A DNA stretch of 64,000 nt from Escherichia coli. GTDB lineage: Bacteria; Pseudomonadota; Gammaproteobacteria; Enterobacterales; Enterobacteriaceae. The stretch is from NCBI RefSeq assembly GCF_003334305.1, contig NZ_QOWS01000001.1. One strand, given 5' to 3'. Numbering within the stretch: position 1 is the first letter of the stretch; every line of letters starts with the position of its first letter. The notes below the pieces were generated by a model. The model saw only the letters and a list, made by a program, of their open reading frames with translations. It had not been told where the DNA came from and made no database searches. The translations under genes and the position numbers were made by a program. Of this stretch, positions 41,387 through 63,391 are shown piece after piece.

Positions 41387-41559
41387 AAAGTTCTTTGACG
41401 TTGCATTGCTGGCGTAAATGTCAGCAATGCAGCATTTCCTCACGATTCTCCTTTGACGATCGCACTTTTTGCTCGTTATGATGGCGTCGCTAGCCTCAGT
41501 AAATCCTTACTCCGGCGGTGCGCAACCCGTGCGCGTGAACCACTATCTGAATGCTCATC

Positions 41560-42492
41560 ATGCCGAAATTTCGAGTTTCTTTATTTAGCCTGGCCCTGAT
41601 GCTGGCTGTGCCTTTGGCACCGCAGGCCGTTGCGAAAACGGCAGCCGCTACCACCGCTTCACAACCGGAAATTGCCTCCGGTAGCGCGATGATTGTTGAT
41701 CTGAATACCAACAAAGTGATCTATTCGAACCACCCGGATCTGGTGCGTCCGATTGCGTCTATCAGCAAATTAATGACCGCGATGGTTGTGCTGGATGCAC
41801 GACTGCCGCTGGATGAAAAACTAAAAGTGGATATCAGCCAGACGCCGGAGATGAAAGGGGTCTATTCGCGCGTACGACTGAATAGCGAAATCAGCCGTAA
41901 AGATATGCTGTTGCTGGCGCTGATGTCTTCAGAAAACCGCGCGGCGGCAAGCCTTGCACACCATTATCCCGGTGGTTACAAAGCCTTTATTAAGGCAATG
42001 AATGCGAAAGCGAAATCGCTCGGAATGAACAACACGCGCTTTGTTGAACCTACCGGATTGTCGGTGCATAACGTTTCAACTGCCCGTGACTTAACCAAAC
42101 TGCTCATTGCCAGCAAACAATATCCGTTGATCGGGCAGTTAAGTACTACCCGGGAAGATATGGCAACCTTCTCTAACCCGACGTATACGCTGCCGTTCCG
42201 CAATACTAATCATCTGGTGTATCGCGATAACTGGAATATTCAGTTAACCAAAACCGGCTTTACCAATGCGGCGGGCCATTGTCTGGTGATGCGTACGGTT
42301 ATCAATAATAAACCGGTGGCGCTGGTAGTGATGGACGCGTTTGGCAAATATACCCATTTTGCCGATGCCAGCCGCCTGCGTACCTGGATTGAAACCGGTA
42401 AAGTGATGCCTGTGCCGGCAGCAGCGTTGAGCTATAAAAAACAAAAAGCCGCCCAAATGGCGGCGGCGGGGCAGACGGCACAGAACGATTAA
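41560..42492 (+). CDS. pbpG: D-alanyl-D-alanine endopeptidase PBP7 (PbpG), 310 aa
   Basis: ORF 41551..42492; start at 41560 ([25 protein letters not shown] signal peptide); SxxK motif ASISKLMT. Confidence 0.9.
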
Positions 42493-50685: not shown

Positions 50686-50773
50686 AGGTATAACCTGCGA
50701 GCATGACGCCACCAATTCCGCCGAACGCCATAAACAGGAACAGGGCGATGACCCCAATTTTAGCTATGCGCAT
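50666..50773 (-). CDS. yohO: Small membrane protein YohO, 35 aa
   Basis: Hand-translated minus-strand [38 protein letters not shown]; its 3' end overlaps the yehW 3' end by about 20 nt. Confidence 0.65.
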
Positions 50774-60745: not shown

Positions 60746-61834
60746 TCACGGCAGGCGGTGGCGGGCTTGATAATAAGCCTGCCAGTGAGCTTCTTTATGT
60801 GTGGCGACTCGTTGTTCGAAGTAACGGCGCAGACGAGCGCGATCTTCTTCGTTATCTTTGACGATGGTTCCGGCAATGCAGTCCACCAGGTCGGCTGGCT
60901 CACCTGCGCGATTCGCTAAAAACCAGGCGCGGACGCCTACGGCGTGGGCCACGTTCACGGCTTCAGCGGTGGACATAATCGCTGTTAGTGTATCCATTGA
61001 CGTTTTCTTTTCGCCGTTGGCACGCAGATCGCGGAAGGTGCGGACCAGTAACTCCAGTACCGCGTCAGGCACTTTATGCGGAATACCGCTATGGGCCAGC
61101 AAACGCGCCGAAGCACTGGCGACAAGCTCCAGCTCCTGGGCGAAATCCATAATCGGAAAGACAGTTTCAAAATCGAAGCGACGCTTTAGCGCAGCACTCA
61201 TTTCATTGACGCCGCGATCTCGGGTATTGGCAGTGGCAATAATATTAAAGCCTTCTCGCGCATAGAGCTGACTGGCTTCACCAGTGAGTTCCGGCACCGT
61301 CATCACCCTGTCAGAAAGCATACCTAACAGACAGTCTTGCACTTCCAGCGGTGTACGCGTTATCTCTTCAAAACGGACGATTTTGCCGTCGCGCATTCCC
61401 TGGTAAAGCGGGGCAGGGACCAGCGCTTCCGTTGATGGACCATGATTGATAAGCAGGGCGTAGTTCCAGCCGTACTTGATTTGATCTTCGGTAGTAGATG
61501 CGCCGCCCTGGATGGTTAACCCGGCATCGCCGCTAATAGCGGTTGCCAGTAATTCAGACAGGAGAGATTTTGCGGTGCCAGGTTCCCCCACCAACATCAA
61601 ACCGCGCCCGGTGGCAAGAGTGACTAACATGCGTTCGACAGCGGAGGGACTAATCACCACTTTACGGCTAATATTTTGCGCGCTATCGCCAAGGATAAAA
61701 GCACGGGCCGCAGGCAAACTTAACTGCCAACCGGGCGGGCAAGGAGCGTTATCATTTTGTTTTAATTTTGCCAGTTCATCGGCGTATAACACAGCAGCAG
61801 GCGGACGCTGCAGATGATTATTCTGCGGTGACAT
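60746..61834 (-). CDS. yehL: MoxR-like AAA+ ATPase YehL, 362 aa
   Basis: ORF 60746..61915; start at 61834 (MSPQNNHLQRPPAA); Walker A GEPGTAKS. Confidence 0.9.
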   Translation of the reverse strand: MSPQNNHLQRPPAAVLYADELAKLKQNDNAPCPPGWQLSLPAARAFILGDSAQNISRKVVISPSAVERMLVTLATGRGLMLVGEPGTAKSLLSELLATAISGDAGLTIQGGASTTEDQIKYGWNYALLINHGPSTEALVPAPLYQGMRDGKIVRFEEITRTPLEVQDCLLGMLSDRVMTVPELTGEASQLYAREGFNIIATANTRDRGVNEMSAALKRRFDFETVFPIMDFAQELELVASASARLLAHSGIPHKVPDAVLELLVRTFRDLRANGEKKTSMDTLTAIMSTAEAVNVAHAVGVRAWFLANRAGEPADLVDCIAGTIVKDNEEDRARLRRYFEQRVATHKEAHWQAYYQARHRLP

Positions 61835-61944
61835 ATATTCATCCCTGAAATGTATTAATGAAATAAACGATATTTTACGCGCAATAAATGTTTGGCGCAT
61901 TAGTTGTTTGAGCAAAAAATATCTGGAAAGCAGATCGCAGTAAA

Positions 61945-62028
61945 TAAAAAAACCTGCTGGTGAGGCAGGTTCTTTTATTTACTATTTTCAGGCCTAACAC
62001 CACAGCCTGTGCAACATCGTGTTCCAAC
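61945..62028 (-). ncRNA. Candidate antisense sRNA antitoxin (OrzO/OrzP-type), about 84 nt
   Basis: Minus-strand TTGCAA-17 bp-TATAAT promoter (-10 at plus 62035-62040); predicted 5' end near 62028; strong terminator (AACCTGC-loop-GCAGGTT then TTTTT on minus); first ~20 nt complementary to the toxin leader at 62175-62194. Confidence 0.6.
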
Positions 62029-62034
62029 GAACGA

Positions 62035-62085
62035 ATTATAACCACGGCTGGACCCCGTTGCAATTAAGATAATGAGATTTATAAT
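62035..62085. promoter_or_regulatory. Back-to-back sigma70-like promoters sharing one palindromic -35 hexamer (toxin mRNA rightward, antisense sRNA leftward)
   Basis: Shared TTGCAA at 62058-62063; plus-strand TATAAT at 62080-62085 (16-bp spacer); minus-strand TATAAT at 62035-62040 (17-bp spacer). Confidence 0.55.
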
Positions 62086-62266
62086 CCAGACCGTTGGGAC
62101 GTTGCGCCGGATCGAACCTATTTCAAGTCCTGGCTACCGGACGGGGGGTGCTGCAGGTGGTGCCCTGATCCGGAGTGCAACATCGTGGTCCAACATACGT
62201 AAACCAGTATCGACAGGCAGTGTAAGGGTAAGGTGCTGGTGTTGCGCTCCTTAATAAGGAGAGCGG

Positions 62267-62356
62267 ATGGACTCGCTGACACAAAAGTTAACCGTGCTCA
62301 TTGCTGTACTGGAGCTATTAGTGGCTCTGTTACGGTTGATTGATTTGTTGAAGTAA
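62267..62356 (+). CDS. zorO/zorP: 29-aa hydrophobic peptide, type I toxin candidate (ZorO/ZorP-type)
   Basis: ATG 62267, AAGGAG 5 nt upstream; MDSLTQKLTVLIAVLELLVALLRLIDLLK, one predicted TM helix with charged ends; about 174-nt leader from the predicted start near 62093. Family name is from memory; which copy is zorO and which zorP is not resolved. Confidence 0.75.
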   Translation: MDSLTQKLTVLIAVLELLVALLRLIDLLK

Positions 62357-62377
62357 CGGGCAAATTGAAACGCATCT

Positions 62378-62402
62378 AAGGGGGAAAACCGCTTCCCCCT
62401 TT
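62378..62402 (+). terminator. Terminator hairpin of toxin mRNA copy 1
   Basis: AAGGGGGAA-aaccgc-TTCCCCCTT perfect 9-bp stem 22 nt after the stop; short U-tract. Confidence 0.5.
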
Positions 62403-62554
62403 AATAAAATGATTACTGTTTTTATTAATTCATCATATAACTCATTTTTATTTATAAATTCATCGATTTTATATTCAACGCACCATTTGACCGGGATGTG
62501 AATATTTATGTTGGGCTATTGGCAAAAAATATCTGGAAAGTAGATCGCAGAAAA

Positions 62555-62636
62555 TAAAAAAACCTGCTGGTGAGGCAGGTTCTTTTATTTACTACAGTGA
62601 CGCTAACTTGCTGATTGTGCAACATTTCGTACCAAC
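62555..62636 (-). ncRNA. Candidate antisense sRNA antitoxin, copy 2 (OrzO/OrzP-type), about 82 nt
   Basis: Minus-strand -10 TATAAT at plus 62643-62648 and shared -35 TTGCAA at 62666-62671; terminator 62561-62581 with U-tract; 5' region complementary to the copy-2 leader at 62783-62802. Confidence 0.6.
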
Positions 62637-62642
62637 GAATAA

Positions 62643-62693
62643 ATTATAACCATATCCACACTCCATTGCAATTCAGTGAGTGAGATTTATAAT
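62643..62693. promoter_or_regulatory. Back-to-back promoters of copy 2 sharing a palindromic -35
   Basis: TTGCAA at 62666-62671; plus-strand TATAAT 62688-62693; minus-strand TATAAT at plus 62643-62648. Confidence 0.5.
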
Positions 62694-62874
62694 CCTGCCC
62701 GTTGGGAGGTTGTGCCGGATCGGACCAATTTTAAGTCCTGGCTGCCGGACGGGTGGTGCCGCAGGCGGTGCCCTGATCCGGAGAGCAACGTTTCGTACCA
62801 ACATACGTAAACCAGTATCAACAGGCAGTGTAAGGGTAAGGTGCTGGTGTTGCGCTCCTTAATAAGGAGAGCGG

Positions 62875-62964
62875 ATGGACACGCTGACACAAAAGTTAAC
62901 CGTGCTCATTGCCGTACTGGAGTTATTAGTGGCTCTGTTACGGTTGATTGATTTGTTGAAGTAA
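62875..62964 (+). CDS. zorO/zorP: 29-aa hydrophobic peptide, type I toxin candidate copy 2 (ZorO/ZorP-type)
   Basis: ATG 62875 with AAGGAG upstream; MDTLTQKLTVLIAVLELLVALLRLIDLLK, differing from copy 1 only at residue 3 (S to T). Confidence 0.75.
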   Translation: MDTLTQKLTVLIAVLELLVALLRLIDLLK

Positions 62965-62985
62965 CGGGCAAATTGAAACGCATCT

Positions 62986-63010
62986 AAGGGGGAATACCGT
63001 TTCCCCCTTT
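62986..63010 (+). terminator. Terminator hairpin of toxin mRNA copy 2
   Basis: AAGGGGGAA-taccgt-TTCCCCCTT stem. Confidence 0.5.
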
Positions 63011-63018
63011 AAGAAAGC

Positions 63019-63073
63019 TATACTCGTCATACTTCAAGTTGCATGTGCTGCGACTTTAATTATCTAGAGTATA
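63019..63073. repeat. Truncated ERIC-like element abutting the yehK 3' end
   Basis: TATACTCGTCATACTTCAAGTTGCATGTGCTGCG ... AATTATCTAGAGTATA: ERIC terminal arms with the central part missing. Confidence 0.55.
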
Positions 63074-63391
63074 TTATTCTATTTCTTGGTTGAATATATT
63101 CTGTAGTTCACGATTAAAAATTGCTATTACAGTTTCAGGTGATTCACCTCGTAATTTCCGCTCATCAATACACTCATCTCTTATATAAATCAACGCATCA
63201 TTTATTAGCGGGTCAGCATCTTCTCGATCACGTTGATGAAATGTTGGATGTAGCCGGAATCGCTCCAGTCGATAGACGGAACCTGTAAATAATTCAGAGC
63301 ATTTATGGATCTCAAGTCTGAAGGAAAACGGATCTTCAGGTACAGGGACCTCATAATCGTAAATAGCAACTAGCTCTTTTTGCACGATCAT
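63074..63391 (-). CDS. yehK: Uncharacterised protein YehK, 105 aa
   Basis: 105-aa ORF (MIVQKELVAIYDYEVPVPEDPF...) between yehI and the repeat island. Confidence 0.85.
   Translation of the reverse strand: MIVQKELVAIYDYEVPVPEDPFSFRLEIHKCSELFTGSVYRLERFRLHPTFHQRDREDADPLINDALIYIRDECIDERKLRGESPETVIAIFNRELQNIFNQEIE

Follow-up and report, generated by a model that had tools for sequence, protein, structure and literature searches.

A chromosomal region between yehL and yehK of Escherichia coli that matches the two-copy, type I zor-orz toxin-antitoxin locus

The zor-orz modules of Escherichia coli are type I toxin-antitoxin systems in which a small hydrophobic toxin peptide is controlled by a divergently encoded small RNA (sRNA). 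In O157:H7 EDL933, z3289 and z3290 are located between yehI and yehL, where the intergenic region measures 1.2 kb compared with 0.3 kb in MG1655 (PMC2887945). Here we analysed the region between yehL and yehK in a 64,000-nt stretch of an E. coli genome (contig NZ_QOWS01000001.1 of assembly GCF_003334305.1), referred to below as the window. This region is almost certainly the chromosomal zor-orz locus in its two-copy form, with zorP-orzP (61912-62402) followed by zorO-orzO (62522-63012). The pair has already been published and has been characterised since 2010, and there is nothing new in its identification.

The best described member is zorO-orzO of EDL933. Overproduction of ZorO leads to growth stasis, which is rescued by OrzO and not by OrzP, with the V1 triplet of the sRNA (GAA in OrzO, ACG in OrzP) setting the specificity; rescue depends on RNase III at high toxin induction and is independent of Hfq, and the first 18 nt of OrzO, equal in length to the published complementarity with zorO, are enough for repression (PMC3919570). 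The zorO leader is 174 nt long, with its ribosome-binding site (RBS) at +164 to +169 and a region termed EAP at +73 to +102. The full-length mRNA is weakly translatable, and a processed form lacking 28 nt (delta-28) is better translated, EAP acting as a ribosome standby site at which OrzO also blocks translation; structure probing found EAP protected in the full-length mRNA and exposed by processing, and the RBS closed in both forms (PMC5397157). ZorO is found in the inner membrane, where it disturbs membrane potential and integrity and depletes ATP, and its ALLRL motif is required for toxicity (PMC6669753, PMC9860968). ZorP is ZorO with the substitution T3S (PMC11264685). Proposals on the role of these systems include carbon-source-dependent expression and an effect involving aminoglycosides, the latter with multiple copies only (PMC3919570, PMC11264685, PMC9860968).

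Other type I systems resemble zor-orz in design. With tisB/istR-1 it shares an sRNA encoded divergently, whose pairing site is far upstream of a closed RBS, and activation by 5' processing that exposes a standby site, and with shoB/ohsC and dinQ/agrB it shares the divergent layout, a lengthy 5' untranslated region (UTR), 5' processing and RBS-distal sRNA pairing (PMC5397157). The zor leader is 71-74% similar to plasmid dinQ-like leaders over about 113 nt (PMC11264685). TisB, like the Zor peptides, is a 29-aa membrane-depolarising toxin, but tisB/istR-1 has no sequence relationship to zor-orz and is single-copy, and full-length zorO, unlike its counterpart, is still weakly translatable. The shoB/ohsC and dinQ/agrB systems differ in having other toxins and sRNAs, and they are without the tandem O-, P- and Q-type diversification or the non-cross-reacting seeds. 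Expression of tisB is under LexA/SOS control and dinQ is SOS-regulated. No LexA box of the form CTG-N10-CAG occurred anywhere in 61836-63073, and the stretch closest to the 20-nt LexA consensus, with 6 mismatches, fell outside the modules, so that the SOS control of tisB and dinQ has no counterpart here. The similarity to the SOS-regulated divergent class (tisB/istR-1, dinQ/agrB) is thus one of layout only.

The intergenic region occupies 61836-63073 (1,238 nt) between the minus-strand genes yehL and yehK. Each of its two modules contains, on the minus strand, a match to Rfam RF02083, the OrzO-P RNA antitoxin family, above the gathering score of 60. The antitoxin gene of the first module, orzP (61946-62028, 83 nt), matched over 61946-62021 with 99.9 bits, and that of the second, orzO (62556-62636, 81 nt), over 62556-62629 with 88.8 bits. 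Their 5' seeds run from 62028 to 62009 (OrzP nt +1 to +20) and from 62636 to 62619 (OrzO +1 to +18), with V1 at +9 to +11 reading ACG in the former and GAA in the latter, and each gene ends in a terminator hairpin on the same strand, a predicted Rho-independent one at 61951-61971 for orzP and another at 62561-62581 for orzO. Across the whole window, only three Rfam matches reached gathering level, these two and an unrelated Peptidase-S11 motif. Sub-threshold matches at the orz terminators and 3' flank (STnc370, Thr leader, Trp leader and isrH) were rejected as generic terminator or repeat resemblance.

On the plus strand, each module encodes a 29-aa peptide. The zorP open reading frame (ORF; 62267-62356, MDSLTQKLTVLIAVLELLVALLRLIDLLK) has Ser3, a single hydrophobic core of transmembrane length (grand average of hydropathy, GRAVY, 1.39 overall and 2.43 in the core) and ALLRL at residues 20-24. 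The zorO ORF (62875-62964, MDTLTQKLTVLIAVLELLVALLRLIDLLK) has Thr3, ALLRL at the same residues and a translation identical to that of O157:H7. Since ZorP is the T3S form of ZorO and the V1 triplets are ACG and GAA, the first copy is zorP-orzP and the second zorO-orzO. Both ORFs have the Shine-Dalgarno (SD) sequence AAGGAG 5 nt before the ATG, at 62256-62261 and 62864-62869. When both strands of the window were searched for AGGAG followed after 4-9 nt by an ATG and 20-60 codons of GRAVY above 1.2, only three ORFs were returned, two of which were zorP and zorO, a result that speaks against a chance pattern. The third is an SD-led, hydrophobic ORF of 35 aa near 50773 on the minus strand, which appears to be the K-12 small membrane protein YohO. 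Downstream of each toxin ORF is a G+C-rich hairpin, at 62378-62401 for zorP (-14.6 kcal/mol; a putative terminator with a weak T tract) and at 62986-63009 for zorO (-17.8 kcal/mol).

Toxin and antitoxin genes are separated by divergent promoters. A promoter scan of 61800-63100 returned exactly four sigma-70-like sites, two per module, at equivalent positions and on opposite strands. The plus-strand sites read TTGCAA-16-TATAAT and end at 62085 and 62693, placing the -10 elements of zorP at 62080-62085 and of zorO at 62688-62693; the minus-strand sites read TTGCAA-17-TATAAT and end at 62035 and 62643, placing those of orzP at 62035-62040 (10/12 matches) and of orzO at 62643-62648. In each module the same six palindromic bases were reported as the -35 element for both strands (62058-62063 and 62666-62671). 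Conservation of these TTGCAA and TATAAT hexamers has been published for 99% or more of zor/orz loci (PMC11264685). Taking the G located 7 nt past the minus-strand -10 as +1 gives the sRNA lengths and V1 triplets above, and taking the G located 8 nt past the plus-strand -10 gives predicted leaders of 174 nt for both zorP (62093-62266) and zorO (62701-62874). With this numbering the RBS falls at +164 to +169 in both leaders, equal to the position published for zorO. The control region between divergent start sites is then 66 bp in each module (62028-62093 and 62636-62701), with one -35 serving both promoters.

Duplexes were modelled for the 5'-terminal 25 nt of both Orz sRNAs against both leaders, with shuffled seeds as controls. 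OrzP nt 1-20 pair with +83 to +102 of the zorP leader (62175-62194) through 6 bp, one mismatch and 13 bp, and OrzO nt 1-18 pair with +85 to +102 of the zorO leader (62785-62802) in 18 contiguous pairs including one G-U. The cognate duplexes had energies of -34.8 kcal/mol for OrzP-zorP (shuffled OrzP seeds, -19.1 +/- 2.8) and -31.3 kcal/mol for OrzO-zorO (shuffled OrzO seeds, -15.2 +/- 2.5). The non-cognate duplexes, at -20.2 (OrzP-zorO) and -24.4 kcal/mol (OrzO-zorP), were near the shuffled-seed values, and the cognate duplexes were 7-15 kcal/mol stronger than the non-cognate. Both targets are at the 3' end of EAP, which corresponds to 62773-62802 in zorO. The sRNA 5' ends and the toxin 5' UTRs are complementary over 18-19 nt inside EAP, some 60 nt upstream of the RBS. 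The mismatched position is seed position 7 (OrzP nt 7, 62022 on the minus strand, opposite zorP +96 at 62188). This position is unpaired in the P type and also in two types from other strains, a third Q-like type and that of SCU-123, and is paired in the O type, giving a recurrent discontinuous 6+1+13 duplex.

All of the features that the original prediction had drawn from the letters of the window were borne out by these results. It had described tandem units of about 490 bp between yehL and yehK, each with a divergent antisense RNA complementary to the leader, a leader of about 174 nt, a strong SD, a GC hairpin and a 29-aa hydrophobic ORF, the second with T at residue 3. The ORFs were found as quoted, the antisense RNAs have their own promoters as well as the Rfam matches, the leader lengths would follow from the assumed start sites, and RefSeq annotation of matching records confirms the genomic position. 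The identity that it had proposed, zorO-orzO/zorP-orzP, agrees with the Rfam matches, the T3S peptides, V1, the promoters, the leader numbering and the genomic site. In membership terms, the locus combines the OrzO-P match, a ZorO or ZorP peptide with ALLRL, divergent TTGCAA/TATAAT promoters and the yehL-yehK/yehI position.

Predicted folds of the leaders also follow the published structure. In both full-length mRNAs the modelled fold joins +1 to +21 with +75 to +102 in cis, covering 12-13 nucleotides of the Orz target. When 28 nt were removed, the Orz site became more open, its mean unpaired probability going from 0.29-0.35 to 0.49. The SD stayed paired (unpaired probability 0.07) in the full-length and shortened forms; in zorP, the hairpin GCGCUCCUU/AAGGAGAGCG, at -10.6 kcal/mol, holds the RBS at a mean unpaired probability of 0.07-0.11 in both forms, and the zorO RBS is enclosed in a predicted hairpin as well. 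In these models the leaders reproduce the published probing result.

The layout of the two modules is that of a diverged tandem repeat. Gapped alignment showed homology over two 490-bp modules (61912-62402 and 62522-63012) and no alignment past that point. The direct repeats fall into two families, 61912-61984 with 62522-62594 (97% identity, spacing 610 nt) and 62008-62307 with 62616-62915 (87% identity, spacing 608 nt). The true period is about 609 bp rather than about 490, because a 120-bp AT-rich spacer (62403-62521) separates the modules. The spacer has no recognised feature and no Rfam match and is missing from the single-copy strain 536; a 30-aa ORF within it (62409-62501) was treated as non-functional, with no SD, no Rfam match and no counterpart in strain 536. 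Identity between the copies is high in the 3' part of orz (97%), the leader's 3' half (98.6%), the ORF (96.7%) and the 3' UTR with terminator (96%), and low in the 5' part of orz (56%), the promoter block (75%, with hexamers intact) and EAP (77%). This mosaic fits selection for seed-target pairs that do not cross-react, as proposed in the literature (PMC3919570, PMC11264685).

These patterns also bear on a rival view, in which a repeated intergenic sequence happens to contain the ORFs and RNAs by chance, without their being expressed. In none of the E. coli records examined did RefSeq/PGAP annotate a coding sequence or noncoding RNA over zorO, zorP, orzO or orzP, and neither peptide had an NCBIfam family at E <= 10, as would be expected of such features. 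However, the Rfam matches are far above the gathering score, the two copies agree at 96.7% in the ORF although neighbouring segments are only 56-77% identical, and the peptide was invariant, apart from T3S, in 12/12 strains sampled. Northern blots, primer extension, toxicity and rescue have moreover been published for identical sequences (PMC3919570, PMC5397157, PMC2887945). We rejected this explanation as already refuted by published experiments, and attach practically no probability to it.

The resemblance to O157:H7 extends to genomic site, tandem order, promoters, the 174-nt numbering and V1, all as described for zorO-orzO/zorP-orzP of EDL933 (PMC2887945, PMC3919570, PMC5397157). For sequence comparison we used O157:H7 strain 7636, in which the yehL-yehK intergenic region is 1,240 nt long. 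OrzO, OrzP, ZorO and ZorP were identical to those of this strain, and nine single-base or indel differences were found across the 1.24 kb between yehL and yehK; another, listed at 61835, was an artefact of the alignment edge and was excluded. One of the nine is a synonymous change within zorP (62323), another affects +120 of the zorO leader (62820), and two (62088 and 62092) lie between the zorP -10 and its start site; the remainder are outside transcribed functional elements. The Orz transcripts, seed targets and RBS hairpins were free of differences from strain 7636, and no non-synonymous site was affected. The best matches of the window were non-O157 strains, such as mouse isolate M8 at 100%. 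Since OrzO, ZorO and the OrzO target are identical to those of O157:H7, the published toxicity, rescue and RNase III mechanism should apply here, and we infer from this identity that the behaviour described for EDL933 would hold in the strain of the window.

In K-12 the corresponding site is much shorter. The yehL-yehK intergenic region of K-12 strain DH1 (locus L002, 1486-1791) is 306 nt long, and the original prediction had read the 1.1-kb block as an accessory island inserted at a site where K-12 lacks the locus. It had the absence of the toxins right: both toxin ORFs and the whole orzO module are missing from K-12. However, orzP survives intact in DH1 together with the two promoters and roughly 30 nt of zor leader, joined to yehK-proximal sequence. 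The junction comes after about 31 nt of the leader, where …GGACCAATTT is followed by GAATTATTTAGAG, and the first base of the leader is A, not G. The transcribed orzP and its promoter are identical to the first copy in the window. This K-12 orzP was described in 2024 under the name OrzPmg, an orphan antitoxin stated to be 100% identical to EDL933 orzP (PMC11264685). The OrzPmg locus of MG1655 has lost the zor leader past about +30, both ORFs and the entire orzO module, all of which are intact in the window. The retention of orzP, the promoters and the leader stub indicates a deletion in K-12 rather than an insertion site that was never filled.

The length difference of 1,238 and 306 nt, and a copy number that varies among strains from 0.5 to at least 2, would be expected if the block were a recently inserted mobile element and K-12 the empty site. 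Against this, besides the deletion product in K-12, no transposase, integrase, mobile-element terminal inverted repeats or tRNA is present at the locus, where AT-rich flank makes up the sole long inverted-repeat pair (I1, 78%). The two copies, at 87% identity in their variable part, are far too diverged for a recent duplication, and the places with zor were chromosomal except for 4/5,231. We therefore rejected recent insertion, given the orzP and leader stub retained in K-12, and consider it very improbable.

Nor is the locus specific to enterohaemorrhagic strains, the setting with which it had been linked. Using 62195-62402 as query, the zor module was found in 3,395/5,426 complete E. coli genomes (63%), with a median of two copies among carriers and a maximum of four. 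The orz genes were more widespread still, being present in 5,210/5,426 (96%), and about 1,815 genomes (33%) had orz only, a share published as '>30%' (PMC11264685). This excess of orz raises the question of whether the Orz sRNAs act mainly in trans on other genes, with the antitoxin role secondary, the toxins dispensable passengers and orz the selected unit. K-12, with orzP and its promoter intact and its toxin deleted, fits such a role, and OrzPmg is expressed in MG1655, where functions beyond toxin repression have been proposed (PMC11264685).

Comparison of seeds and targets across strains speaks for selection on the toxin-antitoxin interaction instead. The P and O types recur among eleven other strains sampled, and a third seed, GUUGAGAUGCCAUGUUGCAC, occurs in other strains with a matching target, GUGCAACAUGGCGACUCAAC; it probably corresponds to zorQ/orzQ as published. 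SCU-123 has another seed variant, and in single-copy strains such as 536 the sRNA and target are of P type but the peptide is of ZorO type. The SD-ATG spacer is GCGAATG in two loci (unit 1 of L007, and L009 of SCU-123), both of which encode intact ZorO. Across the P, O and third types, Orz seed positions 5, 6, 9, 10 and 11 vary jointly with the target, which in sequence terms is compensatory covariation between two separate transcripts. This covariation in toxin-bearing loci, together with the 99.8% of Orz sRNAs that keep repressive pairing potential (PMC11264685), points to the Orz-zor interaction as the object of selection. No target other than zor is known, and a wider role in trans would in any case be compatible with a toxin-antitoxin role for the modules of the window, whose two toxin genes are intact. 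We consider it unlikely that trans-regulation of other genes is the main function of the Orz sRNAs.

Taken as a toxin-antitoxin locus, the two modules would operate as follows. Back-to-back sigma-70 promoters around one palindromic -35 would produce an Orz sRNA of about 80 nt from the minus strand and a zor mRNA of about 300 nt from the plus strand. Full-length zor mRNA would be poorly translated, with its SD in a hairpin and the first ~21 nt paired in cis with +75 to +102; loss of the first 28 nt would expose EAP as the ribosome standby site and raise translation. Orz bound to its leader target would block standby loading and trigger RNase III cleavage, so that little toxin is made. Any 29-aa ZorO or ZorP that is produced would enter the inner membrane and cause depolarisation, ATP depletion and growth arrest, and divergence of seed and target would insulate the modules from one another. 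The gene identities, promoters, complementarity with its specificity and covariation, predicted cis-occlusion and RBS hairpin in this scheme come from the present sequence analysis; toxicity, OrzO rescue, RNase III dependence, Hfq independence, delta-28 processing and membrane effects come from published experiments on EDL933.

None of the evidence contradicts the zor-orz identification, but several points weigh on the other side. With neither an NCBIfam model nor RefSeq annotation, database support comes from Rfam and the literature. Strain 7636 stood as a proxy for EDL933 in the O157:H7 comparison. All transcription start sites rest on promoter geometry in our analysis (measurements in EDL933 have been published, PMC5397157), and the leaders were first given as about 180 nt (PMC2887945) and later refined to 174 nt (PMC5397157). 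The OrzP-zorP pairing is broken by its internal mismatch, and in the literature repression of zorP by OrzP is less studied than that of zorO by OrzO. The zor 3' hairpins, with their weak T tracts, were not called as terminators by our scan, because the T run is short. Finally, there was no single-copy chromosomal effect on aminoglycoside tolerance (PMC9860968).

Two features of the sequence, both minor, are not stated in the published passages checked: the common palindromic -35, and a resemblance between the 5' end of the zor mRNA and the Orz seed. The zor mRNA and Orz both start with GUUGG, and both pair with CCAAC at +98 to +102. In a test for inverted duplication across the -35, the second copy gave an alignment score of 13.5 compared with 1.3 +/- 3.6 for shuffles, which was significant; the score of the first copy, 4.0, was not above its shuffles (-0.6 +/- 3.5). 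We tentatively suggest, as a possibility that is more doubtful than probable, that the common -35 couples toxin and antitoxin initiation and that the zor 5' end is the cis counterpart of Orz. If so, RNA polymerase would start only one transcript at a time in each module, making toxin and antitoxin synthesis reciprocal, and Orz would mirror in trans the self-inhibitory element of the leader, from which it may descend by an ancient inverted duplication.

The flanking genes were placed by their ORFs and by RefSeq annotation of matching records: yehL, encoding an AAA-type ATP-binding protein, at 60746-61834 and yehK at 63074-63391, both on the minus strand. Between the zorO hairpin and yehK is a remnant of a short intergenic repeat of the ERIC/IRU type (enterobacterial repetitive intergenic consensus/intergenic repeat unit; 63019-63074), which explains why BLAST gave additional, multi-copy places (a median of 5 in each genome) and why Rfam gave a weak isrH match. 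Longer ERIC forms are found at the equivalent spot in strains 536 and SCU-123, and contain AGTAAGCTCCTGGGGATTCAC, presumably the ERIC1R primer sequence. In these two strains yehK, next to the ERIC insertion, is annotated as a frameshifted pseudogene (L003 2189-2505 in 536 and L009 1065-1381 in SCU-123). Elsewhere in the window, the Peptidase-S11 motif (Rfam RF03039, 41475-41555, plus strand, 72.8 bits against a gathering score of 34.8) is directly upstream of a 313-aa PBP7/pbpG-like ORF (41551-42492), which a dld-like ORF adjoins.

The main value of these results is for annotation. A toxin-antitoxin pair that has been characterised experimentally is invisible to standard pipelines, despite its wide distribution in E. 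coli. Flagging it correctly helps the annotation of small proteins and sRNAs, and the comparison of strains carrying 0.5, 1, or 2 or more copies of the locus.

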